NCBI GenBank assembly: GCA_005888635.1
Contig: VBAW01000019.1
Location: 18,776-82,775, forward strand
Reading direction: 5' to 3'
Origin: Candidatus Bathyarchaeota archaeon
Lineage (GTDB): Archaea > Thermoproteota > Bathyarchaeia > 40CM-2-53-6
DNA: 64,000 nt
The stretch's first letter is position 1. Each line of letters opens with the position of its first letter. Of the stretch, positions 23,433 to 59,777 are shown piece after piece. The notes under the pieces were generated by a model. That model had not been told where the DNA came from. It did no database searches and was given only the letters and a program-made list of their open reading frames with translations. Made by a program: the position numbers and the translations under genes.

Positions 23433-25913
23433 CTAACTGGTTCTGCGGACCCCACAGTTCGGACAGAAGAGCCCAGTTAGAGGAACCGCCGAGCCGCAGT
23501 GAGTACATGGGACTGAGTTGCCACCGAGTGGCCATCTCTGGGAAGATGCCAATGGCGGATTATTCCGCGGTCTTTGCGCCTGTCGGATAAGCAGAAGAGT
23601 AGCTGCAAGGGTCACGAGGGCAACCGCGAGGAATACGGGACCGTACTCCTTGACCAAGATCATGACTTGGCCCGCTAGTGTTGAGATGAGTTGAGAGCTT
23701 GGTCCAGACCCTGGCTCAGGGCTTGGGTTCGGGTTTGCTGAGATTGAGACTTGGAACTGGGCAACGATATTGCTACCGGCCTCCCATATTATGGGATAGG
23801 GATACTGGTATTGCCACTCCACAGTCTCGGTCAGCATGTGTATTCCCGCCCCGACTGACCGGGGAATCGTAAACGCCAGTGTCAAAGTGATATTGCTTCC
23901 CGCACCAATTAGCGGCGCGTCGGGTAGGTTGCAGAGGCTGTTGCCAAGCTGCGCGGTCGGAGTATTTCCGGGGCACTCGCTATCATCCATGAGCGTGAAC
24001 GTTCCAAAATCAGTCGTCACTCTAACCAGGATTATTCTGGAGGGAAGGGCGCCCACGTTTGTGAAATTGTTCACGAACACCGCGGATCCTCCGGCCTGAG
24101 CGGCTTCGGGGCCGAGGATATCATACAACATCGCGGCTGAGGGAACATTGGCTGTTACAGTTTCGGTGGCCTGCATGCGGCTGGTTGTCCCGATAATTGT
24201 AATCGTATAGGATGATGTGGGGGTAGTCTTTGTCGCCACAAATATCGCGTTAACACTAACACTCTTGCCACTCCCGACGGCGACAGGGTTCTGGTTGAAT
24301 ACGACAGTTGGAATCTGGTTTGGCCACGTCGGCGAGGATGGTGCTACCGTCGCGTTGAGCTCTACGCTGCTATCGAAACCGTTCAGGCTGGACAATGTGA
24401 CGGTGAAGGTGCCGTTAGTCGTTCGGGGAACAGTAAGGGACCCAGGACTGGCGGCTATGCTAAAATCTCGCAGCCCAGCACTACCCTTCGGCACCACCAT
24501 AACATCAGTGAAGAGACTGTCGGCCCTGCAACAGGTGTACGCCTCGGCACTAAACCTCACGTCTACGGTCTGGCCTGCAAGACCGGAAATATCGTAGACC
24601 TTCATCTCCGGAAGATTCCCCGTACACCCTCCCGTGCTGTTGACAATCGGCACAGGGACGAAAGTATCGGACAGCGCCCCGATTCCATTGCCTGTAACAG
24701 TAACCGTGGCTGACTCTGACCCGCTCGTTATCTGTCCCCATGTAAGGAATGCGAGTACGCCGCCAGCTTGAGGGACGGTGAAGCTCTCATCGGCGTATCC
24801 AGAAGTGCCTAGAGTGTTCCAGATATCGAGAAACGATGATCCCTGAAGAGCGCCGGGCGTACAAGGCCCGGTACTCGTGGTCACCTGGATGATCGGATAG
24901 TTGCCGTTATACTGGACTCCGTAGATAGTGCCTGTCGTCCAGTATGCGAGTCCGTTGCTGAAGTCCCCGTTCTGGATCGCGTTAACAGCTTCCTGAGCAA
25001 GAATGTTCATCGAAACGGTTAGAGTGTGTGAAATGTGGCCAGCGGTCGCGATGATCGTGGCATTATAGCTCCCCGGAGGGATCGCGGCCAACGACAATAG
25101 GTTGAGAATGGAGAGAGCTGTGCCGTTGATCTGAAGGTTGACGATTGGAGCGCTGAACCATCCAGAGATCGCGTATGAGGAGGATCTTACGGTAAGAGAT
25201 ATGGTCCCGAAGAATCCTGTGTCGCCAGTGAGACTGATGTTGAAGTTTGCAATCATCCCTCTGGGCAACGTCACAGAGGTCGAGTTGGATCTAATCGTAA
25301 AGTCTGACCCGGACGGTAGGAGATTACTGAAGCTGGCGGTCTGAACCGTCGCCGTGGGACCGTTCAGGTTAACACATATTCCGTTGAGAACGCTCGTGCT
25401 TGAACAGCCCGAGGGGAAGGTGATTGGAGTGTTCGCCCCTGTCCCTGTAACGTTGTACGTGGCGGTGAAAAGAATTCCATTTGTGGGCGCTATGGTTGGG
25501 TAGTATCCGTACCCGTCGACGGTAACAACTCCCGGCCCGTCCACTGATCCACAGTTAGCTCCCGCCCCATTGATGCATTGCCAGCCGCCCACAGGGTAAC
25601 CACTCGATGCGCTCATTACGCTCTGAGCCAAACTCGCGTTCACGGGATAGAGGACGGAGGCATTGGTCTTGACCGATATTGTGAACTGCTGGAAAGACCC
25701 GACGGATTGTGCAACGACGTAGACTGTTAGAAAGGATCCCTGCTGTCCCGTGAGAGTTGAAGGTGTGGTGGGACAATAATCAGCAAGCGATATGCAGACC
25801 ATTGGCGCAAGATTTCCGCGAGCAGGAGTTGGAGCTACCCTGACAATGAATACCACGGTGAGAATCAGGATTGCAGCAGCGACATTCGCGAAGTGTCGGC
25901 GAGAACTAGTCAT
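23433..25913 (-). CDS. Large cell-surface protein with C-terminal TM helix and cytoplasmic zinc ribbon
   Basis: 826 aa with a signal peptide and Thr/Ser-rich beta-rich repeats. The C-terminal TM helix is followed by CTHCGSAVPLTGLFCPNCG. Confidence 0.6.
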   Translation of the reverse strand: MTSSRRHFANVAAAILILTVVFIVRVAPTPARGNLAPMVCISLADYCPTTPSTLTGQQGSFLTVYVVAQSVGSFQQFTISVKTNASVLYPVNASLAQSVMSASSGYPVGGWQCINGAGANCGSVDGPGVVTVDGYGYYPTIAPTNGILFTATYNVTGTGANTPITFPSGCSSTSVLNGICVNLNGPTATVQTASFSNLLPSGSDFTIRSNSTSVTLPRGMIANFNISLTGDTGFFGTISLTVRSSSYAISGWFSAPIVNLQINGTALSILNLLSLAAIPPGSYNATIIATAGHISHTLTVSMNILAQEAVNAIQNGDFSNGLAYWTTGTIYGVQYNGNYPIIQVTTSTGPCTPGALQGSSFLDIWNTLGTSGYADESFTVPQAGGVLAFLTWGQITSGSESATVTVTGNGIGALSDTFVPVPIVNSTGGCTGNLPEMKVYDISGLAGQTVDVRFSAEAYTCCRADSLFTDVMVVPKGSAGLRDFSIAASPGSLTVPRTTNGTFTVTLSSLNGFDSSVELNATVAPSSPTWPNQIPTVVFNQNPVAVGSGKSVSVNAIFVATKTTPTSSYTITIIGTTSRMQATETVTANVPSAAMLYDILGPEAAQAGGSAVFVNNFTNVGALPSRIILVRVTTDFGTFTLMDDSECPGNTPTAQLGNSLCNLPDAPLIGAGSNITLTLAFTIPRSVGAGIHMLTETVEWQYQYPYPIIWEAGSNIVAQFQVSISANPNPSPEPGSGPSSQLISTLAGQVMILVKEYGPVFLAVALVTLAATLLLIRQAQRPRNNPPLASSQRWPLGGNSVPCTHCGSAVPLTGLFCPNCGVRRTS

Positions 25914-35022: not shown

Positions 35023-35310
35023 ATGGGAAAGAAGGAAGAGCCGAAGGAGCCGAAGAAGCAGAGTGAGGTTTCGAAGGCTGCTAAGGGATTCTTCTATGGT
35101 ATGGCTCTGCATGGAATGGTAACCTACGCGTTGAGGCTGAGAATGCACATGGAGAACCTGTTCATGCTCATCACCATGGGCGACATGCTCGGGATACCTG
35201 TACTACCGCCCTACTACAGCCTCAGGCTCCTGCCCTACGCGGTCCCGTCTCTGAAGACATGGAAGCAGACACTGCTCAGAGATCGAGACATTACCGACTC
35301 ACTGTACTAA
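35023..35310 (+). CDS. Small hypothetical protein upstream of and overlapping the first ArsA-like gene
   Basis: 95 aa with a Lys/Glu-rich N-terminus and a hydrophobic core. Confidence 0.35.
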   Translation: MGKKEEPKEPKKQSEVSKAAKGFFYGMALHGMVTYALRLRMHMENLFMLITMGDMLGIPVLPPYYSLRLLPYAVPSLKTWKQTLLRDRDITDSLY

Positions 35311-36329
35311 GGAGCTGTCAACAGACGGCCATGAGCGCTGCGGTCAGCCCAGGCATGGCCGAGTACTTCGCATCCAATCCTGACCTCAGGTACATTCTCT
35401 TCGGTGGAAAAGGCGGGCTAGGTAAGACAACCCTATCCGCCGCGACCGCCCACTGGCTAGCGCGAAGAGGAAAGAGGGTCTGTGTCTTTTCGACGGATCC
35501 CCAGGCGAGCCTCTCGGACATTTTCGAGAGGAAGATCTTCGGCCAGGGAGAGGTCGAACTCGCCTCAAACCTCTTTGCTGTTGAGATCGACGCCGATCGG
35601 AGAATCGCAGAGTATCAGGAGGAGATTAGGAACAAGATCAAGGACATGTACAAGATGGAGACGATTCCCGAGGAGGTGGAGGATTACATCAACTCGTCCG
35701 CCGCGGAACCAGCGATGGCCGAGTCAGCCACGTTCGACGCCATGGTTGAATTGATGACCGCAGGCAAGTTCGACTACTACGTGTTCGACATGATGCCGCA
35801 TGGACACGCAATAAGATTCCTGGGCATGGCCGACATTCTAGACCAGTGGGTCGAGAAGATCGTCACCGTGAGGAAGAAGGCTGGAGAGTACGGGGAGGCT
35901 GCTACTGTTATGGGCAACAAGGGAAGCCTTGTCCAGGAAGATCTCGTCCTGAAAGAGCTAGAGTACATCAGAGGACGACTCGACTTTGTCAGCACAATGG
36001 TCCGCGACCGAAAACACACCGCGTTCTTCTACGTGCTCGTTCCCGAACTAATGCCCATTCTAGACACTCGAAAAGCACTGGAGATGTTCAGAGAGTTCAA
36101 CGTGACAGTGAGCGGAGTAGTAGTGAATCAAGTATATCCGAAAGAGTTGAAGGACCAGACGGATGTTCCAGGCTTCTTGAAGAACAAGATATCCTCGCAG
36201 CAAGAATACGTTCACCAGATCCAGAATGAGTTCGGGGGCCTCATCAGAGGAATTGTGCCGATGCTTGACCGAGAGCCGAAAGGTCTTCAGATGATATCGA
36301 AGGTAGCAGACATACTCTACGGGGCCTAA
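35259..36329 (+). CDS. ArsA/Get3-family anion-transporting-type ATPase (single-domain)
   Basis: Deviant Walker A GGKGGLGKTT, STDPQASLSD (ArsA signature STDPAHSL) and DMMPHGHAIRFLGM (the DTAPTGHT switch II equivalent) are all present. The likely true start is the internal Met near 35355. Confidence 0.8.
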   Translation: MEADTAQRSRHYRLTVLRSCQQTAMSAAVSPGMAEYFASNPDLRYILFGGKGGLGKTTLSAATAHWLARRGKRVCVFSTDPQASLSDIFERKIFGQGEVELASNLFAVEIDADRRIAEYQEEIRNKIKDMYKMETIPEEVEDYINSSAAEPAMAESATFDAMVELMTAGKFDYYVFDMMPHGHAIRFLGMADILDQWVEKIVTVRKKAGEYGEAATVMGNKGSLVQEDLVLKELEYIRGRLDFVSTMVRDRKHTAFFYVLVPELMPILDTRKALEMFREFNVTVSGVVVNQVYPKELKDQTDVPGFLKNKISSQQEYVHQIQNEFGGLIRGIVPMLDREPKGLQMISKVADILYGA

Positions 36330-36335
36330 CCGACC

Positions 36336-37358
36336 ATGGAGACAGCGAACCCGCGCCAGTCGTTCCCGTCTTTCGTGTCAGCAAAGAAGGGATTGAAGTA
36401 TCTCTTCTTCGGCGGGAAGGGAGGAGTTGGAAAGACAGCGCTAGCCGGCGCAACAGCCTACTATCTCTCAGAGATGCTCGGAAAGAAGACGCTGATCTCC
36501 TCCACAAATCCTGTCCATAGCCTCTCAAGCCTCTTCGGCCAGGATCTCTGGAAGAAGGGGACAAGGAAGATTGAGGGAACCAAAAACCTCTACGCAGACG
36601 AAATAGACATTTCGTCAACCATAGAGAGGTATAAGGGCGAGATCAAGGATCGGCTCGTCCAGTTTCTCAAGTTCGCAGACATCCCAGTTGATGTTGAACC
36701 GTTTATCGAAATCGCCACAACGAATCCTTCCTTCGAGGAATCCGCCATGTTCGACGATATGGTTGATCTAATCCTCAGCGGACAGTACGACGCCTACGTC
36801 TTCGATACAGCACCAGTCGCCCACACCTACAGACTGCTGGGCATGTCAAAGGTCTACAACCTCTGGCTCAACAAGATGATCAAGAGCCGTCAAGAGTCAA
36901 TGTCTCTACGCACAAAACTTTCCTTCCGCAAAGAGAAAATAATCCAGGAGCTGAAAAAGGACCCACTGCTAATCTCGCTGGCTGGAACCAAAAAGAAGAC
37001 GGAAGAGGCGAGAGAAATCCTTACGGATTCGGAGAAGACCGCATTCTTCTTCGTCACCTTGCCACTCGCCCTCCCTATCGCGGTGATTGAACGGTTCATC
37101 ACCTGGGTCCAAGCCTTCCAGATACCCATCGGAGGGGTCATCGTCAACGAAGTCATTCCAAAGATCGATTTGGAAAAACTGTCGCCCTATGTTGCCCACC
37201 GGATGGAAGAACAGGCAGGCTACTTGAGACTGGCTGAACAGAAGTTTCCAGGAATGATACGGGCAGTGCTACCATTGTATGAAAGAGAGGTTAACGGCCT
37301 GGACATGGTTTCCAGGATGGCCCAAAGCCTGTCTTTAGGCTCAGAATCGAGAATCTGA
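36336..37358 (+). CDS. ArsA/Get3-family ATPase (second tandem paralogue)
   Basis: GGKGGVGKTA, STNPVHSLSS and DTAPVAHTYRLLGM are present. It starts 7 nt after the previous gene. Confidence 0.8.
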   Translation: METANPRQSFPSFVSAKKGLKYLFFGGKGGVGKTALAGATAYYLSEMLGKKTLISSTNPVHSLSSLFGQDLWKKGTRKIEGTKNLYADEIDISSTIERYKGEIKDRLVQFLKFADIPVDVEPFIEIATTNPSFEESAMFDDMVDLILSGQYDAYVFDTAPVAHTYRLLGMSKVYNLWLNKMIKSRQESMSLRTKLSFRKEKIIQELKKDPLLISLAGTKKKTEEAREILTDSEKTAFFFVTLPLALPIAVIERFITWVQAFQIPIGGVIVNEVIPKIDLEKLSPYVAHRMEEQAGYLRLAEQKFPGMIRAVLPLYEREVNGLDMVSRMAQSLSLGSESRI

Positions 37359-37447: not shown

Positions 37448-39280
37448 TTGTATGAATCGCTCATAGTAATGCTGAGCGGCATCATCGTCTACGGCATCGT
37501 CTACCAGTTCTATGTGAAATGGTTCGACCGGAGCGTCGTCCAGTCCGACCCCAACCGTCCCACACCAGCCCACACCTACCTAGATGGTGTCGAGTTCTTC
37601 CCATCAAACAAGTACGTCATGCTAGGCTGGCACTGGAAGAGCATCGCCGCCCTAGGACCCGTAACCGGTCCCGCCCTAGCAATAGTCTGGGGATGGCTGC
37701 CCGGATTCCTCTGGATCCTGATCGGTAACTCGCTGCTCGGCTGGCTGCACGATTACAACTCGATGATGACATCAGTCAGGAGCGAGGGAGCCTCCCTAGG
37801 ACCCCTCACTTACCAGATAATAGGAAAACGAGCCAGGCGGGTCCTAGTAGCGTTTCTCGCCTTCTATTCCATCCTGATTTTCGCGGCATTCCTCGGCGCT
37901 CTCCTACCAATCGTCAAGAACCAGGCATTCGTAGGCGCGTCAGCAATAGTCGCGTTCATGATCATCGCTGTAATTGGCGTCGCCTCAGGATATGCAATAT
38001 TCAAGGCCAAGATCAACGTAGTTGCAGTGACGATCGCGTCACTGGTTGGAGTCGCCCTAACGGTCTATCTGAGCACCGCAGTATTCGGCTCCGCGATTGG
38101 GACAGCCTTCACAAGTGCAATCCCTGACCCGCAACTGCAGGAGGACGTGCTCCTAGCTTCAATGCTGGTCTTTAGCATACTCGGCGCGGTCCTCCCGCTC
38201 TGGAGCTTTGCAATGCCGATAAACTATCTCGGATTCTACGTCGCCTACTTCGTTGTAGGCGCGATCGTCGCTAGCTCCTTCATCGCGCCCCAGACGTTCA
38301 CCTCTCCCATGTTCACAAATTGGTTTTCGCCCGTCGCTATCGGAGCGGGAACCGGACTCATCAACAACGTCGCCTTTCCCTTGTGGCCTCTGCTGTTCGT
38401 GACGATCGCGTGCGGAGCCTGTTCTGGCTGGCACGGGCTCATCGGATCCTCCCTCTCGTCAAAACAGCTCGACACCGAATCGGACGCCCACTTCGTGGGC
38501 GGTGGCGGGATGCTTCTTGAAGGCGTCCTAGGACTCACGTCGGTCGTGGCAGTCGCTGCTCTCACGAGCAAGACCGGATGCGCAGGATCACTAGGCCTCT
38601 ACGTTTGCGGAGGCGCTCAATATCTCGGAACATTTGGAATAGGATCCCTAGTTGGGAAGGGGATCATGGCTCTGATGGTCATCATCCTCGGACTAACATT
38701 GACTCAACTGGCTTTGCGGTTTGCGAGACTCGCAATATCCGAAATGGTCAAACTGCCCGCCCTGAAGAATGTCTACGTCACATCCATCATCGTGTCCATC
38801 GTCACGTTCGTATTAACAAGCTCCCGGTTTGGAGCTCCTTGGGGATTCATCTGGACACTCTTCGGAGGGTCCAACCAACTTCTCGCGGGCGTTACGCTCC
38901 TCGTCGCAACCCTATGGCTGACAAAGTCAAGACGTAGAGGTATCTTCACTGGCATACCTGCAATATTCATGCTAGTCACCACTATTGCCGCCCTAGGCTA
39001 CACCGCCTACGCCACCCTGGACATTGCTCTCACCACGAACATCGCGACGTCTGCCACCCGTGCATACGGCAGCGCAGTTGCTGGGGTCATCGCAATCATC
39101 CTGACCGCGCTGGGACTAGTACTCTCCTACGATGGCTTCAAGGCCTACCGGGGAATAAGAAGCGGCCTAGCAAGCACACCCTCAATCTCGACAGGAATAT
39201 CGCGGGCCTCCCCCTCTGACAACAAAGAGCCGACAAAATCAGCAGCACCGAGAAGTCCCGAAGATTTCAGAACCACGTAG
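37448..39280 (+). CDS. cstA: CstA (carbon starvation protein A) family peptide/pyruvate transporter
   Basis: 610 aa and polytopic. The N-terminal HWKSIAALGPVTGPALAIVWGWLPGFLWILIGNSLLGWLHDY matches the CstA N-terminal signature. Confidence 0.8.
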   Translation: MYESLIVMLSGIIVYGIVYQFYVKWFDRSVVQSDPNRPTPAHTYLDGVEFFPSNKYVMLGWHWKSIAALGPVTGPALAIVWGWLPGFLWILIGNSLLGWLHDYNSMMTSVRSEGASLGPLTYQIIGKRARRVLVAFLAFYSILIFAAFLGALLPIVKNQAFVGASAIVAFMIIAVIGVASGYAIFKAKINVVAVTIASLVGVALTVYLSTAVFGSAIGTAFTSAIPDPQLQEDVLLASMLVFSILGAVLPLWSFAMPINYLGFYVAYFVVGAIVASSFIAPQTFTSPMFTNWFSPVAIGAGTGLINNVAFPLWPLLFVTIACGACSGWHGLIGSSLSSKQLDTESDAHFVGGGGMLLEGVLGLTSVVAVAALTSKTGCAGSLGLYVCGGAQYLGTFGIGSLVGKGIMALMVIILGLTLTQLALRFARLAISEMVKLPALKNVYVTSIIVSIVTFVLTSSRFGAPWGFIWTLFGGSNQLLAGVTLLVATLWLTKSRRRGIFTGIPAIFMLVTTIAALGYTAYATLDIALTTNIATSATRAYGSAVAGVIAIILTALGLVLSYDGFKAYRGIRSGLASTPSISTGISRASPSDNKEPTKSAAPRSPEDFRTT

Positions 39281-49286: not shown

Positions 49287-51605
49287 CTATCCTAATCGGC
49301 CATGTTTGTCCACTAGTTTCTGAAGAGAATTCGCAACCTTCTCCGCCTCCGGTCTACGCCCAGGATCCTTCGCCAGCATGTCCTTCAAGACCGGAATTAT
49401 TGCTGAGAATTTCGGATCAATCTTCGACACGTCTGGACTGAAGGAATCCCACGCTGACTCGAGATCATTCGCGGCCTTGTTCGAGGAAGGATTGTTTGAC
49501 AGATTATTCATCGCTTCGATCAACGTGTTGGAGTGGACCGGGGTCCGTGTCAGCATTGTGTACAGCGCCGCTCCCAATGCGTAGACATCCATGCTCGGAT
49601 CCGCCTCGTCGCCGAGAACCTGCTCACCCGGCGCATACTCCGATGTAAACTGAACCACCTTTCCACCACTCTTCACCGCACAGCCTAGGTCAGCCAGCTT
49701 GGGCACGAGCGACCCGGCGACCATCTGTTCTAGCATATCCTGTCCAGTCAATGGCGGCTTCGATGTGAACAGAACATTCTGCGGTTTGACATCAAGATGA
49801 ACGAATCCGGCTTTGTGGACCATGTCTAGTGCCTGAGCCATCATCTGGCCCAGCATCACAACAATCCCACCCCACTTCTCCGAATAGTACAAAGGCTCAT
49901 ACGCTGGATCCTCGATCAGCTTCTTCGCCGTCCCACCCTTCATGAAGTCCATAACGATCGCTGGTGGGCTGCGATAGTAGAGTGCGATATTCCCCTTGAC
50001 AATCTCCTGAACGTTCAATCGATCCACCAGCACTCCTCGGATCTGGACCACGTACTTGGATTGACCTGACAGCTCCAACAATCGAGTCGCCTCGGACATC
50101 GTCTCGTTCAACGTCGTCACCCCGGTAGTCGGCTCGTTCACGCCTCTCACCCTACTGGTCGTTTTCAGGATCGGAATCTTCAGCGCCATCTCAGTCGCCC
50201 CCTGGCCAAAAGTTGCACGGAGAACATAGCCAGTCGCACCCGTAGCAACGTGTTCTACAACTTTGTAGCCATGGATCTCCTGGTTCACCCAGACTCTCGG
50301 ATCCCACTTGTCGAGGCTCGGCAGGCCAGTCTTCGGCAATGGAGCCGAAGGCGGAGGAGGAAGCGAGATTATTGGCGGGGGACTAGGACGTTGAACGGGC
50401 GGTGGTGGAGCTGGACGTGAGACGGGAGGAGGATGCGATACTTGAGGAGTGGGACGCGCAGGTGGCGGGGGAGGTGGATGTGTGACTGGTTGGGGCTGCA
50501 CGCTGAACGAGAAGGACTCCTTGGAGGTTTGATGCGTCTTACTCGTTGCAATAATGTGCGCGTTGTAGTTACCAGGTTTTCCTGGAGCGTAAGCCGCATT
50601 GTATCTTCCAACGGAGACATGTGACAGTCTCAACTGATCACGTTTTCCCGCGGGCGTTTGTATCGATGCGTCGATTGTGGCCATGTCTCGCGGCTTGCCC
50701 TCAGACTCGGTTGCTATCTTGATCGTCTCAATATGACCTATCCTGATGGAGTGGTCTCCTGAGACCCTGATCCGTGGAGGGGCGACGGAAGGACTAGAGA
50801 TCTTCGCAGGTCCCGCGGATATTTTCGGAGGCGCAGGTGCGCCGAGCATTCTGACCGCCAGTCCAGAAGCGACTATCCCGGCGATTGCCAAGAGTGGCAG
50901 GAATCCCAGGGAGGAGAAGAAGATGTACGCGAGTTCTGGACTAGGAGATGTGATGTAGAGATAGCCGATTACGGCGTTGTAGGAGAAGAAGGCTGGCGGC
51001 ATTACTGCCATTGAGAATCTCTTGGTCTGCCAGAATTTGTCTAAGAAGAATAGAAGACCCATCTGGAGAGAGTTCGCGGCAAGGCCTAGGCCAATGAAGA
51101 ACGAAGCGGAGAATAGCGAGGATCCGATCAGGTTCGAGCCCGTGCTTTTCGAGGCTCCAACGACAAGCCCGATACCTGTTGCAAGGGTCGCAAGAACCAT
51201 CTGCTTAGGGACCCGATAACGTTCCTTCTTCGAGAAGAGGATCGTCGACAGGAAGACCCCTGCTGCGGGTGGCAGGGCAACGAAGAGGAAAGTGAATTCT
51301 CCCGCTGATGAGATCTGGGATGAGAAGGCTGAGTTCTGGAGAATGTAGGACAGGGTCAGGAGTGTAGCTGCGAAACCGAGAATGGATCTGAGGAATCCAG
51401 TTTTCAGATCGAGAGCCGTCAGAAGCCCGAAGCTAACAACAGTGATCGCATAGGTCAGAGTATCCCCCTGAAACCCGAGTGCGAATGCGAAGCCGAGGGG
51501 AAGTGAGAGGACTGTGACGAGTGATGGCGCGAAGAAGCCTGTCGGGGCTGGAAGACCGTGATGTGGCTTAGCTAGGACGGACGCCTGGGGCTGTTTTCCT
51601 CCCAC
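49287..51605 (-). CDS. Membrane-anchored Hanks-type Ser/Thr protein kinase
   Basis: An N-terminal polytopic region and a Pro-rich linker precede a C-terminal kinase domain. The domain has the catalytic loop HLDVKPQN, DLG (DFG-like), APE-like SEYAPGE and the Lys motif ALKIP. Confidence 0.85.
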   Translation of the reverse strand: MGGKQPQASVLAKPHHGLPAPTGFFAPSLVTVLSLPLGFAFALGFQGDTLTYAITVVSFGLLTALDLKTGFLRSILGFAATLLTLSYILQNSAFSSQISSAGEFTFLFVALPPAAGVFLSTILFSKKERYRVPKQMVLATLATGIGLVVGASKSTGSNLIGSSLFSASFFIGLGLAANSLQMGLLFFLDKFWQTKRFSMAVMPPAFFSYNAVIGYLYITSPSPELAYIFFSSLGFLPLLAIAGIVASGLAVRMLGAPAPPKISAGPAKISSPSVAPPRIRVSGDHSIRIGHIETIKIATESEGKPRDMATIDASIQTPAGKRDQLRLSHVSVGRYNAAYAPGKPGNYNAHIIATSKTHQTSKESFSFSVQPQPVTHPPPPPPARPTPQVSHPPPVSRPAPPPPVQRPSPPPIISLPPPPSAPLPKTGLPSLDKWDPRVWVNQEIHGYKVVEHVATGATGYVLRATFGQGATEMALKIPILKTTSRVRGVNEPTTGVTTLNETMSEATRLLELSGQSKYVVQIRGVLVDRLNVQEIVKGNIALYYRSPPAIVMDFMKGGTAKKLIEDPAYEPLYYSEKWGGIVVMLGQMMAQALDMVHKAGFVHLDVKPQNVLFTSKPPLTGQDMLEQMVAGSLVPKLADLGCAVKSGGKVVQFTSEYAPGEQVLGDEADPSMDVYALGAALYTMLTRTPVHSNTLIEAMNNLSNNPSSNKAANDLESAWDSFSPDVSKIDPKFSAIIPVLKDMLAKDPGRRPEAEKVANSLQKLVDKHGRLG

Positions 51606-51756
51606 CGCAATCCACCATTAATCATCCGGCAATAGTTGTCAGAGAATCCTCTCTACCGTCTCTCGACGTGAGGGGAGAACCGCGACCCAAAACGAAAATG
51701 TCTCTAGTGACGGTGACCCTCGGTACTGTCAGAGATTAAACTGTGTCCATCAACCA

Positions 51757-52689
51757 ATGACCAGTTGTTCCATGAAACTCCGTCATTCCAAGCCCGCCAC
51801 CGATGAGGACGAAATAGAGACTGGAACCAGTACTGAGGCACCCACGTCGCAGACAGCTGCGACCGGGAACTGGAAGTGCCCATCGTGCGGCGCCGAAAAC
51901 GAGGATTACCGAACATTCTGCGACGGCTGCGGAGACAAGAGACCCGGAGCCAAAGTCGCATCCAAAGGCATCGACATGGCCAGCCTACTCGGCTCCTCAG
52001 AATCATCCGACAACACAACAGCCAAGGACGACACATCCCCCAAAGACGACAGATCGTCCAGCTGGGAAGACTCTCCCAAGAAAGAGAAGAGCAAGAAGAG
52101 TAAGAAGAACAAGAAAGCCGACGAAGAAGAGGCCGAACCGCTCAAAGCAGAACCTCTCGAACCGGAAAAGATCGAACCCCCAGAGAGCATTACGCCCAGC
52201 GACGATTTCGGATCCCAGAAGCCCTCATTCGTGCTCACTGGGCCATCGGCAGAGCCTGAACCTGATGATAGCCAGGCAGCAGCACCATCACCGCCGACCT
52301 TCCCGTCCAGCTTCCAGTCGAGCTTCCAGCAGACATCCCAGCCAAGCTCAGCCCCAGCCGGATCGCACTATTACTTGGTCTTCGTCAACACACCAGCGTC
52401 ATCCCTCATCAAGACCAAGGTCAGCATCGACTTCGACGACTTCCCCACCATAACCATCGGGAGAAGCCCCGAGAATGTGGTGGTAATTCCCGACCAGGAA
52501 GTGTCACGGAAGCACGCCTCGCTCAGCTTCAGCGGCAGCAAGCTCATGCTGAAGGACCTGGGAAGCCTCAACGGCACATTCCTCTACGATGGCAAAGAGT
52601 TCCAGCGAGTCAGCGATAGTGTCGAAGTCAAGCCGAATAACGTTTTGAAGTTCGGCACAGGCACTATCGTGAAGCTCGTGAGTGAATGA
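51757..52689 (+). CDS. Zinc-ribbon plus FHA domain protein (ArnA-like)
   Basis: N-terminal WKCPSCGAENEDYRTFCDGCG, an acidic Ser-rich linker, and a C-terminal FHA domain (ITIGRSPENVVVIPDQEVSRKHASLSF...LKDLGSLNGTFL). Confidence 0.8.
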   Translation: MTSCSMKLRHSKPATDEDEIETGTSTEAPTSQTAATGNWKCPSCGAENEDYRTFCDGCGDKRPGAKVASKGIDMASLLGSSESSDNTTAKDDTSPKDDRSSSWEDSPKKEKSKKSKKNKKADEEEAEPLKAEPLEPEKIEPPESITPSDDFGSQKPSFVLTGPSAEPEPDDSQAAAPSPPTFPSSFQSSFQQTSQPSSAPAGSHYYLVFVNTPASSLIKTKVSIDFDDFPTITIGRSPENVVVIPDQEVSRKHASLSFSGSKLMLKDLGSLNGTFLYDGKEFQRVSDSVEVKPNNVLKFGTGTIVKLVSE

Positions 52690-53471
52690 TTGAAGCCGCA
52701 GAGGCGCTCCGGGTGATCGGTGAAGCCCTGGCAGAGCTCGCTGGACCCCTACTCAACCCGAGATATGAGGACAGAGTGATCTTCGTTGGAGACACGCACG
52801 GGGCAATAGACGTGACACAGACCGTCATTGACAAATTCTTTGACGACGCAGATCTCATCGTCTTCCTAGGCGACTATGTTGACAGGGGAAACAAGAGCTT
52901 AGAGAATCTCGGGCTAATCGCTTCAACACTCCTAGAAGACCCTCACCGAACAATAATGCTCCGAGGGAATCACGAAAGCCCGCTGACAAATCCCTACTAC
53001 GGATTCACTGACGAGGTGACGGAGAAACTTGGCGAGGGTAGCTACGAGAAATTCAAGGAGTTTTTCCAGGCAATGCCCTATGCGGTTGTTGTAAACGATT
53101 ACCTTTGTCTTCATGGTGGAATTGCGAAAGGCATGGAGCACGTGTCGGAGATCGCCTCGCTTCCCTGGCCTGACTTGAACCCTGATGATCCGATAGCCTT
53201 CCAGCTTTTGTGGAACGATCCGAGAGACGTGATTGACGAGTTCGTTCCTAGCGTCCGCGGTAAAGGAGCCTTCTACTACGGCACCGAAGCGACCAAGACA
53301 TTCTTGGAAAACAACTCGCTCAAAGGAATCATCCGTGGACACGAGGTCGTTGATGGTTTCAGAGAAGATATGGGTGGCCGAGTCATGACCGTCTTCTCCA
53401 GCAGATACCACGGCGGCAAAGCGGGAGTCCTAGTACTCGACAAGGGCAAGATGGAGAGAATAACAGTATGA
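52686..53471 (+). CDS. PPP-family Ser/Thr protein phosphatase (calcineurin-like metallophosphoesterase)
   Basis: GDTHG, GDYVDRG and LRGNHE motifs are present. The gene has ATGA overlaps with both neighbours. Confidence 0.85.
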   Translation: MIEAAEALRVIGEALAELAGPLLNPRYEDRVIFVGDTHGAIDVTQTVIDKFFDDADLIVFLGDYVDRGNKSLENLGLIASTLLEDPHRTIMLRGNHESPLTNPYYGFTDEVTEKLGEGSYEKFKEFFQAMPYAVVVNDYLCLHGGIAKGMEHVSEIASLPWPDLNPDDPIAFQLLWNDPRDVIDEFVPSVRGKGAFYYGTEATKTFLENNSLKGIIRGHEVVDGFREDMGGRVMTVFSSRYHGGKAGVLVLDKGKMERITV

Positions 53472-54601
53472 CCCTATCTGTAAGAACCGAGCTAAGCCAC
53501 TCCTACTCGTACGACTCGAAGGTTGATGCCGTCTTCAAGATCACGCTCGTCGCCGAGAAACAGGCCGAGGCGAAAGGATTCCAGCACATCATCGTCCTCG
53601 ACACCAGCCACTCAATGGCGGGAAAGAAGCTCGAACTCGCCAAGAAGGGAGCCCAGGAATACTGGAGCAGAATCCCTACTGGAAACAAGGTCTCATTCAT
53701 CACTTTCTCAGACTCAGTCCACACTTATCCCGACACCAACCTTTCCACCACCCTCCCGGGAATCAAAGCAACAGGCATGACCGCGCTCTACTCCGCACTC
53801 ACGACCGCGTTCGACATGGCCGCAAAAAGCGGCGCTTCTGGCTGGATTCTACTCCTTACAGATGGGCATCCAACTGACGTGACGAAACCTGAACCCTACT
53901 CGGCGTTGAAGACTCCACAGGGTTTCAAGATGATCGAGTTCGGAATTGGAGAGGACTATCGCGAAGACATTCTCAAAGCCCTAGCAGATGCTTCTGGAGG
54001 AGTCCTCTACCACGTCACCGACGCCGACAAGCTACCCGTCGTTATGCAAGAGAACGCTGTAAGCCAAGTTGCGGGACGAAACATCACGGTAGACTTTGAA
54101 CCCTCGGATGTTCGGATCCTCAACTATCCCGGCCCCCCAGTCAAGATCAATGCTCTAGAAAATATTGCAAAAATCTGGGGCCAAGTAACCATGCCAGAGG
54201 GCTTCAAGGGTCAGCTACTAAACGTCCAAGTCTCCTACGGCGACGCGGTCGACGGGTCCAAGCAAACCATCAACTCATCTGCAAACATTCGACCGGCAAA
54301 AAGTGACGAAGAGTACACTCAGGGAATACGCAACAGTCTCATGGCAGAATTCGCCTACTACCAGGGACTGGAAGAGTACTACAAGCAACTCTCCGCCGGA
54401 AAGTTCAAGGAGGCTACGAAGACAATGACCCAATTATCGTCTAACGCGGGACAAACCCAGCGCGCGGACATCATCGAGTCCACGAAACGACTCTCCGAGC
54501 AGCATGAGCAGACGCTGCGACTTGGAGGAGGCACCGAGAACACGAATCGACTATTGAAAGAAGCAGCAAGCGAATCCACCAAGAGAACCCGCGGCAAGTA
54601 A
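53468..54601 (+). CDS. von Willebrand factor A domain protein (ArnB-like)
   Basis: MIDAS DTSHSM (DxSxS) and a downstream Thr/Asp are present, followed by a C-terminal helical region. Confidence 0.8.
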   Translation: MTLSVRTELSHSYSYDSKVDAVFKITLVAEKQAEAKGFQHIIVLDTSHSMAGKKLELAKKGAQEYWSRIPTGNKVSFITFSDSVHTYPDTNLSTTLPGIKATGMTALYSALTTAFDMAAKSGASGWILLLTDGHPTDVTKPEPYSALKTPQGFKMIEFGIGEDYREDILKALADASGGVLYHVTDADKLPVVMQENAVSQVAGRNITVDFEPSDVRILNYPGPPVKINALENIAKIWGQVTMPEGFKGQLLNVQVSYGDAVDGSKQTINSSANIRPAKSDEEYTQGIRNSLMAEFAYYQGLEEYYKQLSAGKFKEATKTMTQLSSNAGQTQRADIIESTKRLSEQHEQTLRLGGGTENTNRLLKEAASESTKRTRGK

Positions 54602-56395: not shown

Positions 56396-58306
56396 TTGAT
56401 CCGGGAAGTACAGCTCACCAACTTCATGAGCTACAAAAACGCAAGCATCCCACTAGAGCCTGGCCTAAATCTTATTGTCGGACCAAACGGCGCGGGAAAA
56501 TCCTCCATCCTCCTCGGAATATCCGTAGTACTGGGACAAGCCTACACGGAGAGATCGAGAAAGCTCAGCGAACTAATCCGATGGGGCGAAGACCAAGCCC
56601 GAATCTCAGTCCTACTAGACAACGAATCGGAGAAGGGTTCGAGACCCTTCCCGCAAGCCCGAAGCGACAAGATCCTACTCACTCGCATCCTGAAACGCTC
56701 CGGCGACTACCATTACCTCCTCAACAACAAGCCCGTCTCCAAGACCAGTCTTATTGAGGGATTATCGAAGATCGGGCTCAATCCTGACAATATGCTGGTG
56801 ATAATGCACCAGCTAATGGTTGGACGCTTCGGAACAGTTAGCCCAATAGAGAAACTACTACTTCTAGAAGACGCGGTCGGATTCGGGTCGTACCGAAAGG
56901 AAGTCGTAGAAGCCAGCGACCGACTACAGAAGCTAACGACTGAACGAGAAACAATGTCCTCCGTCATAGAAGGGACGAGAGAGACCTACCTCCACTGGCA
57001 GAGAGAATACGAGAAGTACGAGACTAAGAAGAAACTGGAGCAACAGCTCAAAGATCTACAGAGAGAACTCACTTGGCGCAGAATCCTCAGAAAAGAAACG
57101 TCCCAGAAACGACTCCAAGACAGAATATCCTCCCTCCAGACAAAATCAGAAGACGCGAAAGACGAACTAGACTCGGCCCAACATGAACACCTCAAACTCT
57201 CTAGCGAACTTGACCGAGTAAACCAAGAGCTTGAAACGTTCAGAGAAGAACACCTGAAACTGGAGCATAGTCGCGGATTCCGCTCAGGCTCGCTTGAATG
57301 GATAGCGAGATTCAGGGATCTAGTTACACCCGGAGCTGAACAGAATGATCAACTAAGACAGACACTAGCGGAGCTCAATCAGGAACATGAGAAAATAGCC
57401 AATACAGCACAACTGGACGAAACAGAATACGTCAGGGTCCGCTCAAAGATCGCCGAACTGTCAGGACATCTTACGAAGAGCACGGATCTTCTTGTTGAAT
57501 CGAAGGTCAGGTCCGAAGTCAACAGCTTCAAGCTTTCAATGATGGCTCAAGAAATCCAAGAACTCGAAGTCCAACTAAGACTTGGCGAAGAGGAACTTGC
57601 ACCCCTGCGAACCCAGGCCCTCCAACTGGGACCAGCATTCGAAAACCCAAGGGATCTACATGATGTAACGCTTGAGACGGCGGCCGTTCAGGAAAGGATC
57701 CGTCCCCTCGCGCACTTGTCAGCCGATGTGGAGAAGATGTTCAAGACATACGGCGACATGTACGAGGATCTGAGGAAGAAAGCGGAGGTTGTAGAACAGA
57801 ACAGGTCTGAGGTCCTAGGAGAACTTCAGGGACGGTTTGACCGCTGGAAAACGGTCATGGGGAAACTCCTCGAAGACCTTTCGTCGCGATATGGCAATTT
57901 GCTCGATGAGGTCGGAGGCAAAGGAAGAATCGACCTCAAGTCCTCAAAGAACATCGAGAAAGCGGGCCTCGAACTCTACGCGGGCTTCAAGGGAAACGAA
58001 CCGGTATCGTTAGACAGTCTCGCACCCAGCGGTGGAGAACGAACTGTCGCCTTGATCGCGTTCCTCCTATCCCTGCAACAATTCATCTCATCACCCTTCC
58101 GAGCAATCGATGAATTTGATGTTCACATGGATCCGAAAAATAGAGAGACGGTATCTCGACTCATCTACGCAGCCTCAAAGACGACGGATAGTAGCCAGTA
58201 CATCGCTATAACGCCTGGACAATTGTCGCTGCCCAGTGAAGACCAAGTCCACGTGGTTGTGGTCCAGAATGTTGAAGGCAGCTCGATGGTAAAGGAGCTG
58301 AAGTAG
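56396..58306 (+). CDS. SMC/Rad50-family ATPase with short coiled-coil arms (mini-SMC-like)
   Basis: Walker A GPNGAGKSS at the N-terminus, about 300 aa of coiled coil, signature LSGGERTVALIAFLLSLQ, and Walker B AIDEFDVHMD. Only 636 aa; TTG start. Confidence 0.85.
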   Translation: MIREVQLTNFMSYKNASIPLEPGLNLIVGPNGAGKSSILLGISVVLGQAYTERSRKLSELIRWGEDQARISVLLDNESEKGSRPFPQARSDKILLTRILKRSGDYHYLLNNKPVSKTSLIEGLSKIGLNPDNMLVIMHQLMVGRFGTVSPIEKLLLLEDAVGFGSYRKEVVEASDRLQKLTTERETMSSVIEGTRETYLHWQREYEKYETKKKLEQQLKDLQRELTWRRILRKETSQKRLQDRISSLQTKSEDAKDELDSAQHEHLKLSSELDRVNQELETFREEHLKLEHSRGFRSGSLEWIARFRDLVTPGAEQNDQLRQTLAELNQEHEKIANTAQLDETEYVRVRSKIAELSGHLTKSTDLLVESKVRSEVNSFKLSMMAQEIQELEVQLRLGEEELAPLRTQALQLGPAFENPRDLHDVTLETAAVQERIRPLAHLSADVEKMFKTYGDMYEDLRKKAEVVEQNRSEVLGELQGRFDRWKTVMGKLLEDLSSRYGNLLDEVGGKGRIDLKSSKNIEKAGLELYAGFKGNEPVSLDSLAPSGGERTVALIAFLLSLQQFISSPFRAIDEFDVHMDPKNRETVSRLIYAASKTTDSSQYIAITPGQLSLPSEDQVHVVVVQNVEGSSMVKELK

Positions 58307-58308
58307 AG

Positions 58309-59106
58309 TTGACGCAAAGAACCAGCAAAGCGTCCGGGAGGAAAGAGCTCGAAGAGCTGATCCAAACATGTAATTCTATTGAGAACCGTCAATTCAATCC
58401 CTTCCTCCTCGACGTGTCCGAAGCACTCAGAATCATTAGGCGACACGCGGCGAGCTGGCAGACGCTACAGGACAACCTTCTAGACATGCGAGCCATTACC
58501 AGCCTCGCGAGAGTAGTAGGGCTCCAGAGCGCTAATCTCAGATTCCAATCCAGCTCACTGTTCGTCGATCCTAGCATGGTCAAGCAGAAGATTGGATCAA
58601 TGTCGAGAGAACAACTGGCCGAACTCCTTCTACTATCATGGCATCCCGTGGTAGAACTCGAGCAGTTGACGGATGCGTCCACTAAGGAAGCTCTGGATTA
58701 TTGGCAGCAGATGCTGTCCTTCTTTGAAAGGCGCAAGAGACTTGCAGCTGGACCCTTCGAAACTCCGGGATCGATGGATTCACCGGAGCTGGCGAGGATG
58801 AGAGTTCTTGAAGAGAAGGCGTTCACTAAGCGCTTGGAAGAGTTACGGATAGAGATGAAGGAGAAAGCAGGAGAGGATAAGCGAATAGAGTATTGGAGCT
58901 TTGTCAGAACGAGTAATTTCCCTCAGACAGTTCTTCGCGCTCAAATGGTCAGCTTCCTCATCAGCTACGGAATGGCCGCGTTGGATAGGAAGAGAGAGAA
59001 AATGTTCTTGATACCCCGCGACCCACCATTCGCGTCCCGGCAGGGATCACCGCTCAGCTATCCCATACCAATCACTAAGGAGGTTGTTCTGTCACGGGCG
59101 AAGTAA
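58309..59106 (+). CDS. Putative kleisin-like (ScpA-like) partner of the SMC-like ATPase
   Basis: Starts 3 nt after the SMC-like gene. The size (265 aa) and a weak N-terminal resemblance to ScpA (FNPFLLDVSEAL) are the only support. Confidence 0.35.
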   Translation: MTQRTSKASGRKELEELIQTCNSIENRQFNPFLLDVSEALRIIRRHAASWQTLQDNLLDMRAITSLARVVGLQSANLRFQSSSLFVDPSMVKQKIGSMSREQLAELLLLSWHPVVELEQLTDASTKEALDYWQQMLSFFERRKRLAAGPFETPGSMDSPELARMRVLEEKAFTKRLEELRIEMKEKAGEDKRIEYWSFVRTSNFPQTVLRAQMVSFLISYGMAALDRKREKMFLIPRDPPFASRQGSPLSYPIPITKEVVLSRAK

Positions 59107-59237
59107 AACCGGAGCAATCGTACTACCCAGAGCGTGTCAAACGAGCCGCGCACCTTCTTTTCTTCAAGAGAGGAAGGGTACCGGGCGCCAGATCGTGGGA
59201 GCTGAAGACAGGTCTTGGCAAAGAGTATCTGAAAGTC

Positions 59238-59777
59238 TTGACGCAACTTGACGAGAGCTTGAAGGATCTAGACCTAGAGGTCAAGAAAGTCGAGTCACGG
59301 GTTCTCAGCGACTACAAGCCAGGACCCGATGCAGAAGAAGAATCCAGATACTTCGTCAGACTGAAAGGAACCCTGACTCCTCGAGAGGCGAGGATGACAG
59401 GGTGGAGAATCGACAACTTAGCTGCCCTGGCAGCTTGCTTGTCAGTTATTGTCTCAAAACAGGGAAAGAGTGAACGAAAAGAGCTCGAAGAGATAATTGG
59501 ACAGAAAGTGGGACGTTGGAGAGCGATCACCCTTACGGACGCTTTCCTGCGCTCCGGCTACCTCGAAGAAGACGAGGAGGGTCTCGTTAAGCTTGGTTGG
59601 CGCACGAGAGCCGAACTCGACCTCGAGAGTCTGATGATGTTAATCGCCGAATCAAAGCCCAAAGGAGTTATTGACCCAGATTCCGCAGAAACTGCGGAAG
59701 CCTCTGAGGAAGAAGACGCCGCGCGAGAAGTGGAAGCTGAGGGTCTTGAGCAGGATCAGGCTTCGACGGACGCTTGA
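59238..59777 (+). CDS. Putative ScpB-like winged-helix protein; the homology seems to extend upstream to ~59110 without a canonical start
   Basis: The in-frame upstream translation ERVKRAAHLLFFKRGRVPGARSWELKTGLGKEYLKVL resembles the first wH of ScpB (EALLF...PLSL.EL). The acidic C-terminus is also ScpB-like. Confidence 0.35.
   Translation: MTQLDESLKDLDLEVKKVESRVLSDYKPGPDAEEESRYFVRLKGTLTPREARMTGWRIDNLAALAACLSVIVSKQGKSERKELEEIIGQKVGRWRAITLTDAFLRSGYLEEDEEGLVKLGWRTRAELDLESLMMLIAESKPKGVIDPDSAETAEASEEEDAAREVEAEGLEQDQASTDA

Follow-up and report, generated by a model that had tools for sequence, protein, structure and literature searches.

The closest described systems are the SMC5/6-related complexes of archaea. 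An "SMC5/6-related aSMC" with 80 SMC5/6-related homologues was described by Yoshinaga and Inagaki (2021, PMC8665677), and operons of TACK and Asgard archaea that encode an SMC together with an Nse4-related kleisin and an Nse1/3-related kite were described by van Hooff et al. (bioRxiv 2024/25, 10.1101/2024.01.07.573240). Supplementary Table 3 of the latter work records adjacent Nse4-related and Nse1/3-related genes in the Bathyarchaeia order 40CM-2-53-6 and in the Thermofilales; the SMC5/6-related SMC is scored 0 for 40CM-2-53-6 in that table because the SMC set was downsampled. Arm length and hinge loss are mentioned in neither paper, and no mention of hinge-less archaeal SMCs or of the family accession numbers was found in the searched literature. 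The operon analyzed here is of this known kind, so that the distinct complex originally predicted belongs to a group that is already published. Its half-length, hinge-less arm is a variant for which the searched literature yielded no description.

The window, by which is meant the whole 64,000-nucleotide stretch analyzed, carries genes for the SMC, the kleisin, and the KITE on the + strand, where they make up a single, translationally coupled operon in the chromosome of a soil member of the Bathyarchaeia. The SMC gene (56396 to 58306; 636 amino acids, TTG start) encodes a putative mini-SMC ATPase of the SMC5/6-related type. The gene for the Nse4-like kleisin (58309 to 59106; 265 amino acids) starts 2 nt past the SMC stop codon, and the gene for the Nse1/3-like KITE (59103 to 59777; 224 amino acids) overlaps it by 4 nt, with a GTA start that overlaps the kleisin TAA stop. 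The operon is flanked by gar1 and tfb on one side and by PNPOx, rhodanese, and GcvH-TusA genes on the other, a neighborhood that is kept in relatives of 72 to 93% identity. All three reading frames named in the original prediction are thus present, the adjacency to tfb-gar1 is real, and the SMC does have kleisin and KITE partners of its own.

The locus very probably encodes an archaeal SMC5/6-related complex, made of an ABC ATPase of the SMC type with a kleisin that resembles Nse4 and a KITE that resembles Nse1/3. The SMC5/6-type head, the Nse4-like winged helix, and the Nse1-like KITE equate it with the published complex, with which it has its three genes and their order in common; this equation draws on motifs, partners, and gene order rather than on accession numbers. 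The linkage of the three genes is far above chance, as all 53 related metagenome loci have the kleisin upstream of the kite, and all 30 with enough flank have the SMC upstream. The same order is found in other Bathyarchaeia (L001 and L085), in Thermofilales (L002), in UBA160 (L003), and in loci L168 and L169, where the SMC neighbors match the HMMs built here for the kleisin and the kite (7e-12 to 1e-30). Gene order is invariant across lineages, with the kleisin always between the SMC and the kite. Loci L002 and L003 were the useful yield of a genome-contig scan with the SMC alignment, which was otherwise swamped by the Walker A pattern and returned mostly bacterial canonical SMCs.

The motifs for ATP binding and ATP hydrolysis are intact in the SMC and are of the SMC5/6 type. 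The Walker A motif GPNGAGKS (amino acids 29 to 36; 56480 to 56503, + strand) is followed by SS, where the canonical GKSN has N. The signature motif SGGER (amino acids 545 to 549; 58028 to 58042, + strand) is preceded by a two-residue insertion typical of SMC5/6, and the Walker B/D-loop segment FRAIDEFDVHMD (amino acids 568 to 579; 58097 to 58132, + strand) can be set beside DEFDV[FY]MD of SMC6 and DE[VI]DAxLD of canonical SMCs. The catalytic motifs are all invariant, and Pfam SMC_N matches the protein at 5e-36, in keeping with its original description as an SMC-family ATPase with complete motifs. The best PDB sequence match is yeast Smc5 (4.7e-35), homologues carry the JGI label "SMC5," and a search of 1.84 billion proteins gave fungal SMC5 and SMC6 as the named matches outside the mini-SMC family, with canonical archaeal SMCs about as similar as SMC5/6 by raw score. 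A neighbor-joining tree of 87 head domains resolves three clusters, namely, SMC5/6, canonical SMC, and the mini-SMC family. This tree has no outgroup and cannot alone place the mini-SMC family with SMC5/6 or with canonical SMC, and the comparison of motifs was relied on instead. Five head motif regions are common to the family and the named fungal SMC5 and SMC6 proteins and differ in canonical SMC, as follows: the tail of Walker A, the Q-loop spacing, the two-residue insertion before SGGE, PFRxxDEFDVxMDPxNRE, and QYxxITP.

The arm of the SMC (amino acids 163 to 504; 56882 to 57907, + strand) is modeled as a single helical hairpin with approximately 145 to 150 residues in the ascending helix, without a hinge domain or zinc hook, and its length is estimated at about 20 nm. 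In the AF2 model, the heads are poorly predicted and the arm is trustworthy, with pLDDT values of 83 to 94 across amino acids 170 to 480. A helix (163 to 314) leads into a turn (315 to 317), from which a second helix (318 to 411) returns, followed by a break (412 to 420) and two further helices (421 to 438 and 444 to 504). Foldseek aligns this arm with the Smc5/6 arm structures 8i21_B and 8wjo_B with TM scores of 0.61 to 0.72, normalized by target length. The two head halves lie only some 295 to 300 residues apart, and the hinge position is occupied by a predicted tight turn, the apex ...DLVTPGAEQN... (amino acids 311 to 320; 57326 to 57355, + strand). The 636-residue protein gives no match to Pfam SMC_hinge and contains no cysteine anywhere, so that a zinc hook is absent as well. 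The central hinge and long arms of SMC proper (some 300 residues or more in each strand) are thus missing, and the protein is, as originally proposed, about half the canonical length.

In the recovered loci, this operon normally has the short form, as all 38 of its complete SMCs are short (582 to 684 amino acids). The short form extends over 49 or more clusters at 50% identity. The length of the apex varies from 0 to 67 amino acids across the mini-SMC family. In contrast, hinge-bearing SMCs of 835 (L169) and 982 (L168) amino acids occur with the same operon partners in other lineages, and relatives of 982 to 1,047 amino acids carry their extra 360 to 430 residues exactly at the point where the short form has its apex.

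The C-terminal winged-helix region of the kleisin (amino acids 168 to 250; 58810 to 59058, + strand) aligns to Nse4_C, to EID3, and to yeast Nse4. Weak matches to Nse4_C are found in 46 of 47 members of the kleisin family, the best having an E value of 7e-4 and all lying under the 26-bit cut-off; Pfam scans of the distant kleisins of L002, L003, L168, and L169 did not improve this signal. The top four PDB profile matches are human EID3/NSE4B and three yeast Nse4 chains (E values of 0.029 to 0.36). All matches of the kleisin and the kite to Nse4, Nse1, and MAGE fall under the curated thresholds.

The predicted secondary structure of the kite is that of a tandem winged helix. The first winged helix (amino acids 10 to 87; 59130 to 59363, + strand) has the predicted order H-H-H-E-E, holds the motif RVKRAAHLLFFKRGRVPGARSWEL singled out in the original prediction, and lies in a region conserved in the Thermofilales and UBA160 loci. 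The second (amino acids 103 to 171; 59409 to 59615, + strand) gives weak matches to SMC_Nse1, and the C-terminal tail (59658 to 59774, + strand) is acidic and poorly conserved. The AF2 model of the kite is poor overall (mean pLDDT of 52.6), with the second winged helix alone being trustworthy (pLDDT of 66 to 89). The top Foldseek matches of this model are KITE proteins, with Nse1 as the best structural match and MAGE/Nse3 also present. PDB profile searches with the kite alignments returned nothing meaningful by sequence; weak matches to SMC_Nse1 and MAGE recur for the kites of independent lineages.

The kite gene is predicted to start at position 59103, rather than at the first canonical start codon (59238) or at 59079, just past the upstream in-frame stop. 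The in-frame upstream extension noted in the original prediction is indeed coding, and the coordinates given there need to be moved. The kites of relatives (216 to 236 amino acids) start with MKQEQSYYPERVKRAAHLLFF..., and the codon at this position is GTA in the window, versus GTG or ATG in relatives. The overlap of kleisin stop and kite start accordingly reads GTAA rather than GTGA. This GTA-type arrangement is common to twelve related loci, and GTAA junctions recur in two sub-lineages, with plain NTGA overlaps in most relatives. Between the window and locus L103, the codons upstream of the first canonical start differ by 21 synonymous and 8 nonsynonymous changes, and this segment of the kite is under purifying selection. 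The kite is probably produced by termination-reinitiation at the stop-start overlap, which reads GTAA in the window and NTGA in most relatives. A −1 frameshift at AAG-TAA that fuses kleisin and kite is less likely, given the lack of a slippery heptamer and the plain NTGA overlap of most relatives.

The ScpA-like and ScpB-like labels given to the two partners in the original prediction would make the locus a second canonical Smc-ScpA-ScpB condensin with shortened arms. This is improbable, since the SMC scores 194 bits against the NCBIfam model SMC_prok_A, far under the cut-off of 729, and departs from canonical SMC at the five head sites where it matches SMC5/6. No Pfam or NCBIfam match to ScpA or ScpB is found in the window proteins or in any of the 47 and 49 family members. 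The top matches of the partners are instead Nse4_C, EID3/NSE4B, and yeast Nse4 for the kleisin and Nse1 and MAGE/Nse3 for the kite, and published tables place a separate, ScpB-like kite at another site in 40CM-2-53-6 genomes. That the SMC is a Rad50, RecN, or ASRP (ClsN/Sph) repair or compartment ATPase, followed by unrelated DNA-binding proteins, is very improbable. Its size and arm length are like those of RecN and ASRP, and a Rad50 complex is the top Foldseek match of its model, in a search that gave generic, non-discriminating SMC and Rad50 matches. The NCBIfam matches to these families are weak, namely, at most 69 bits for the Rad50 models (cut-offs of 700 to 1,087), 34.9 bits for recN (cut-off of 408), and 47.7 bits for ASRP (cut-off of 300). 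Among PDB sequences, Rad50 (1.9e-06) trails SMC5 and Smc by over 20 orders of magnitude. The lack of cysteine excludes the hook present in Rad50 and most ASRPs, no mre11, nurA, or herA gene lies in the part of the window from 52 to 64 kb, and the downstream genes, with their matches to Nse4 and Nse1, are invariably linked to the SMC. The original exclusion of Rad50 is thereby upheld. A Metallophos gene at 52686 to 53471 was considered as mre11 and ruled out by its motifs GDTHG, GDYVDRG, and RGNHE, which we take to be marks of PPP-family Ser/Thr phosphatases rather than of Mre11, and by its ArnA/ArnB-like neighbors.

The original prediction also allowed for a Wadjet- or Mks-like defense role, and a Wadjet, Lamassu, or MADS type of SMC-based defense against plasmids or phages would accord with the matches of the SMC to PADLOC mad3 (9.4e-29), LmuB (4e-17), and JetC (1.4e-9), with the appearance of JetB and JetA among the structural matches of the kite model, and with the frequency of short-armed SMC-like ATPases in defense systems. 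The PADLOC matches nevertheless reflect generic head similarity, the NCBIfam model MADS3 scoring 18.5 bits against a cut-off of 420, and neither the kleisin nor the kite has a PADLOC match. No nuclease of the JetD/LmuA type, methylase, or other effector adjoins the operon, its housekeeping setting is conserved among relatives, and a search of 2.9 million viral contigs yielded no relatives. A defense function is therefore quite unlikely. There is very little probability that the operon is a decaying, non-functional remnant of a full-length SMC5/6-related operon that suffered an internal deletion and lost its kite start codon. The hinge and distal arm are indeed absent relative to the relatives of 835 to 1,047 amino acids, and the window offers the kite no canonical start codon; against decay stand the breadth of the short form, both in clusters and in complete SMCs of the operon, the invariant catalytic motifs, the excess of synonymous changes in the kite N terminus, and the recurrence of the GTAA junction in two sub-lineages.

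As an SMC5/6-related complex, the products of this operon resemble eukaryotic SMC5/6 in the head motifs, in the Nse4-like C-terminal winged helix of the kleisin, and in a probable tandem winged-helix kite closest to Nse1. The eukaryotic holocomplex comprises Smc5-Smc6, Nse4, Nse1-Nse3, Nse2, and Nse5-Nse6, whereas neither the operon nor its conserved flanks contain genes for Nse2, Nse5, or Nse6; they hold one SMC gene and one kite gene, without further subunit genes. With a single SMC gene in place of the Smc5/Smc6 pair, a homodimer is expected, and in place of the Nse1-Nse3 pair there is one kite, with an acidic tail. The arms are about half as long as those of eukaryotic SMC5/6, which also differs in having a hinge. 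The expected homodimer of SMC with a kleisin and a KITE dimer, encoded together, is shared with Smc-ScpAB, from which the complex differs in its head motif set, in the lack of a hinge, and in the lack of ScpA/ScpB family matches. RecN is of similar size and probably similar shape, with an SMC-like head and an antiparallel coiled coil that is short and lacks a hinge domain; it is not known to have a kleisin or KITE partner. Like ASRPs (ClsN/coalescin and Sph1/2) and Rad50, the mini-SMC is an archaeal ATPase of the SMC superfamily with arms shorter than those of SMC, but those proteins carry a zinc hook (CxxC) at the apex, and the mini-SMC has no cysteine.

By analogy with the established architecture of Smc-ScpAB, MukBEF, and Smc5/6, two SMC heads would engage in the presence of ATP. 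One SMC would be bound at its neck by the N-terminal helices of the kleisin, and the other at its cap by the kleisin's C-terminal winged helix. The middle of the kleisin would carry a kite dimer, and the compartment formed by kleisin and kite would hold DNA clamped atop the engaged heads. As there is no hinge, the kleisin bridge and ATP-dependent head engagement are probably the only links between the two SMCs, to which a weak contact at the apex may add. The complex would thus keep the head/neck DNA-clamp module of SMC5/6 without the large SMC ring. It would most likely serve chromosome maintenance or repair by clamping or bridging DNA in an ATP-gated manner, and it seems unlikely to extrude loops over long range.

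Models of SMC loop extrusion give a central place to the role of the hinge and long arms, and engineered truncated SMCs have been used for probing this role. It is conceivable, if somewhat short of probable, that a widespread SMC5/6-like clade of the Thermoproteota works without a hinge, on arms of about 20 nm, with its SMCs joined only by kleisin and ATP-engaged heads. If so, the head-neck-kleisin-KITE DNA clamp would be a self-sufficient machine to which hinge and long arms are dispensable additions, and the operon would encode a natural minimal SMC holocomplex, of which no description was found in the searched literature. A natural, conserved hinge-less SMC with kleisin and KITE would be a small and tractable complex (636 + 265 + 224 amino acids) that could reveal what the head and kleisin module does alone and what role the archaeal relatives of SMC5/6 have. 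The finding is also of value for annotation, as the genes of the operon currently carry the generic labels "AAA family ATPase" and "hypothetical protein," and calls of the kite systematically come out too short, at 179 or 199 amino acids, because of its non-canonical start codon.

The SMC ATPase gene (positions 56396 to 58306, plus strand) starts with TTG and encodes a protein of 636 amino acids that matches Pfam SMC_N at 5e-36. Motif reading retrieved a Walker A sequence GPNGAGKS, a signature SGGER, and a Walker B with D-loop FRAIDEFDVHMD. The kleisin gene (58309 to 59106, plus strand; 265 amino acids) begins 2 nucleotides past the SMC stop codon and is followed by the gene of the KITE subunit (kite); all three ORFs of the original prediction exist. 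The genes gar1 and tfb are found upstream of the operon on the opposite strand, and a PNPOx-like gene, a rhodanese gene, and a GcvH-TusA fusion are found downstream. No canonical SMC is encoded among the window ORFs of at least 200 amino acids. For all three proteins, close homologues were retrieved from soil metagenomic data and from MAGs labeled Candidatus Bathyarchaeota or Bathyarchaeia. The gar1-tfb/smc-kleisin-kite neighborhood is kept in two Bathyarchaeia loci, L001 (SMC 72% identical) and L085, and this setting is core chromosome and not an island. In both of these loci, an EF-2 gene near the operon (2869 to 6675 in L001 and 9628 to 12828 in L085) harbors an intein that includes a LAGLIDADG endonuclease domain. 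Two homologues 71 to 82% identical to the window SMC, P0030 (HYY91966.1) and P0076 (HWY28531.1), were deposited under the names Candidatus Dormibacteraeota bacterium and Candidatus Sulfotelmatobacter sp.; these entries probably stem from archaeal contigs that were wrongly assigned to bacterial MAGs.

Among all PDB sequences, the top match of the SMC ATPase is yeast Smc5 (4.7e-35), followed by Pyrococcus Smc (1.3e-28), with Rad50 at 1.9e-06, and several homologues carry the JGI name "structural maintenance of chromosomes protein 5." When 1.84 billion representative proteins were searched with HMMER, the family of short-armed forms (mini-SMCs) stood out as a block of about 60 clusters with E values below 1e-90, after which, at about 1e-30, canonical hinge-bearing SMCs appear mixed with nameable fungal SMC5 and SMC6. 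A neighbor-joining tree of 87 head domains, drawn without an outgroup and not decisive, presents three clusters. Motif comparison identified five head features common to the mini-SMC family and SMC5/SMC6, unlike canonical SMC. The Walker A tail is GKS[S/T/A], whereas canonical SMC has GKSN; a residue is added ahead of the Q-loop glutamine (N..xx.Q); and a two-residue insertion precedes SGGE (TQSGGER in the mini-SMC family, RQSGGER in SMC5). The Walker B/D-loop reads PFRAIDEFDVHMDPxNRE in the family, DEFDV[F/Y]MD in SMC6, and PFRVVDEINQGMDPRNER in SMC5, in contrast to PFYxxDE[V/I]DAxLD in canonical SMC. Finally, QYxxITPG in the family corresponds to QYFLITPK in SMC5/6 and differs from QFIVI[S/T]H in canonical SMC. 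This comparison is decisive enough to side the head with SMC5/SMC6 rather than with canonical SMC.

The window kleisin matches Pfam Nse4_C with a subthreshold E value of 0.039, and this model is matched by 46 of 47 kleisin family members, the best at 7e-4 and likewise subthreshold. With a kleisin profile that took in distant orthologues from Thermofilales and UBA160, the four best matches in the PDB all come from the Nse4 family, namely, human EID3/NSE4B (0.029) and three yeast Nse4 chains (0.096 to 0.36), each subthreshold, and all four alignments fall on the C-terminal winged helix. Although every single value is subthreshold, the matches agree with one another. The AF2 model of the kite is poor overall (pLDDT of 52.6) and shows two winged-helix units, the second with a pLDDT of 66 to 89. 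Its best Foldseek matches in the PDB (MAGE-G1/NSE1, JetB, MAGEA4, Nse1/Nse3, and MukE) are all KITE proteins, and weak Pfam matches of kites to SMC_Nse1 or MAGE were seen again in several lineages.

The two head halves of the window SMC are separated by approximately 295 to 300 residues (208 to 341 across the family). In the AF2 model (pLDDT of 83 to 94), this arm consists of a helix at residues 163 to 314, a three-residue turn, a helix at 318 to 411, a break at 412 to 420, and helices at 421 to 438 and 444 to 504. The SMC ATPase gives no Pfam hinge match, and its sequence contains no cysteine. Alignment with longer relatives is collinear throughout except at the apex, where mini forms have 0 to 67 residues versus 182 to 429 in long forms. 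In the loci retrieved via the kite, which is between 41% and 98% identical to that of the window, each of the 38 complete SMCs is short (582 to 684 amino acids; median, 655). The same operon also occurs with hinge-bearing SMCs of 835 amino acids (SMC_hinge, 4.6e-11) and 982 amino acids (weak hinge match), with kleisin and kite neighbors matching the family HMMs at 7e-12 to 1e-30. The short hinge-less SMC is therefore a derived and widespread variant. Three Bathyarchaeota proteins of about 1,020 to 1,050 amino acids (P0387, P0390, and P0408), 35 to 37% identical to the window SMC, branch within the mini-SMC clade in a crude tree. Precisely halfway along their sequences they have C[D/E][K/R]CGS, which resembles a zinc hook of the Rad50 type on a head of the SMC5/6 type. 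No kleisin or kite neighbor is present beside genes of this type in the two loci examined (L167, 4001 to 7087; L166, 2105 to 5248).

The "SMC5/6-related aSMC" homologues, mostly from TACK archaea, were defined by Yoshinaga and Inagaki (2021, PMC8665677). In TACK and Asgard archaea, van Hooff et al. (bioRxiv 2024, v2 2025, 10.1101/2024.01.07.573240) described operons in which an SMC5/6-related SMC is combined with a kleisin related to Nse4 and a kite related to Nse1/3; these exist in addition to a condensin-like set. For the Bathyarchaeia order 40CM-2-53-6, Supplementary Table 3 of that work lists an Nse4-related gene next to an Nse1/3-related one in four of five genomes, and in all five a ScpB-like kite at another place; such an adjacent pair is listed in Thermofilales too. 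The zero in the SMC column for this order is due to downsampling of the SMC set. Soil origin and the accession series of its relatives suggest that the window, too, comes from this order. The system is therefore of a known kind, an archaeal SMC5/6-related SMC-kleisin-KITE complex. Arm length is mentioned in neither study, and the hinge-less, short-armed form appears undescribed so far in the literature searched, the coverage of which is incomplete, so that an earlier description is possible.

The kite ORF runs upstream of its first canonical start (59238), as had been predicted, and homologues, which are 216 to 236 amino acids long and begin MKQEQSYYPERVKRAAHLLFF, cover 97% of the extended translation. 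Alignment of the junction DNA shows AAGTGA in relatives, with a GTG start overlapping the kleisin TGA stop, and AAGTAA in the window, with TAA as the kleisin stop and GTA as the overlapping codon (GTAA, 59103 to 59106). Because the relatives' GTG sits at this GTA, the kite gene spans 59103 to 59777 (plus strand; 224 amino acids). The overlap is GTGA, TTGA, or ATGA in 39 loci and GTAA in 12 loci of two sublineages, the window among them; in these 12, no canonical start codon precedes the conserved N terminus in frame. Single relatives have ATA or CTG as the overlapping codon. Besides the window, the loci listed with a noncanonical kite start are L083, L084, L085, L086, L095, L097, L103 to L105, L107, L115 to L117, and L148. 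Over the 45 codons from GTA to the first canonical start, synonymous differences far outnumber nonsynonymous ones (e.g., 21 versus 8 between the window and L103), showing that these codons are translated. In ten loci the kleisin, too, has no canonical start ahead of its conserved N terminus, and the sole junction read among them, that of L085, is ATAG. The simplest reading suggested by these starts is termination-reinitiation that may tolerate near-cognate codons. As a consequence of the noncanonical start, gene callers systematically shorten these kites, to 179 or 199 amino acids.

That the operon is a copy of canonical Smc-ScpAB is very unlikely in view of the SMC head motifs and of the partner matches; the ScpA/ScpB-like partners originally predicted were not borne out, as no kleisin or kite family member examined matches the ScpA or ScpB models. 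A Wadjet/Mks-like defense system, also raised originally, is likewise very unlikely. The SMC does match PADLOC mad3, LmuB, and JetC, but through generic head similarity, whereas kleisin and kite have no PADLOC match, the locus has no effector gene, the genomic setting is housekeeping, and a search of 2.9 million viral contigs found no copies. The original observation is confirmed, and its interpretation is partly right: an SMC-family ATPase of about half the canonical length with kleisin and KITE partners of its own and the upstream kite extension stand, and the Smc-ScpAB-type partners and the defense system do not.

Identity of the ATPase as Rad50, RecN, or ASRP, already argued against for Rad50, is highly improbable given that it has no zinc hook, that no Mre11, NurA, or HerA occurs among the window ORFs of at least 200 amino acids, and that it scores far under every cutoff of the NCBIfam Smc, Rad50, RecN, RecF, ASRP, and arcadin-4 models. 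Least likely is a decaying remnant, which is contradicted by the breadth of the family, its invariant motifs, and purifying selection.

In the SMC5/6-related complex, the ATPase motifs are intact, the three-gene order is invariant and stop/start coupled, and the arm is a hairpin without hinge or hook. By the architecture common to Smc-ScpAB, MukBEF, and Smc5/6, the kleisin would link one SMC at its neck with the second at its cap, a kite dimer would sit on the kleisin, and ATP would bring the heads into engagement, with DNA clamped over them inside the kleisin/kite compartment. Since the SMC has no hinge, the dimer would have to be held together by the kleisin and by engagement of the heads. 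The clamp module would be retained and the large SMC ring would not, which favors a putative ATP-gated clamping or bridging of DNA, in chromosome maintenance or repair, over large-step loop extrusion.

Elsewhere in the window, two large ORFs on the minus strand (5901 to 7763, 620 amino acids; 23433 to 25913, 826 amino acids) have no Pfam match at an E value of ≤1e-5. Two ArsA/Get3-type ATPase genes (356 and 340 amino acids) lie side by side at 35259 to 37358, and the gene after them (37448 to 39280) encodes a CstA carbon-starvation transporter. A cluster at 49287 to 54601 resembles the crenarchaeal archaellum regulatory network and is composed of genes for a Ser/Thr protein kinase (49287 to 51605, minus strand), a zinc-ribbon and FHA protein (51757 to 52689), a PPP-type phosphatase (52686 to 53471), and a vWA and ArnB_C protein (53468 to 54601), the last three with successive 4-nucleotide overlaps.
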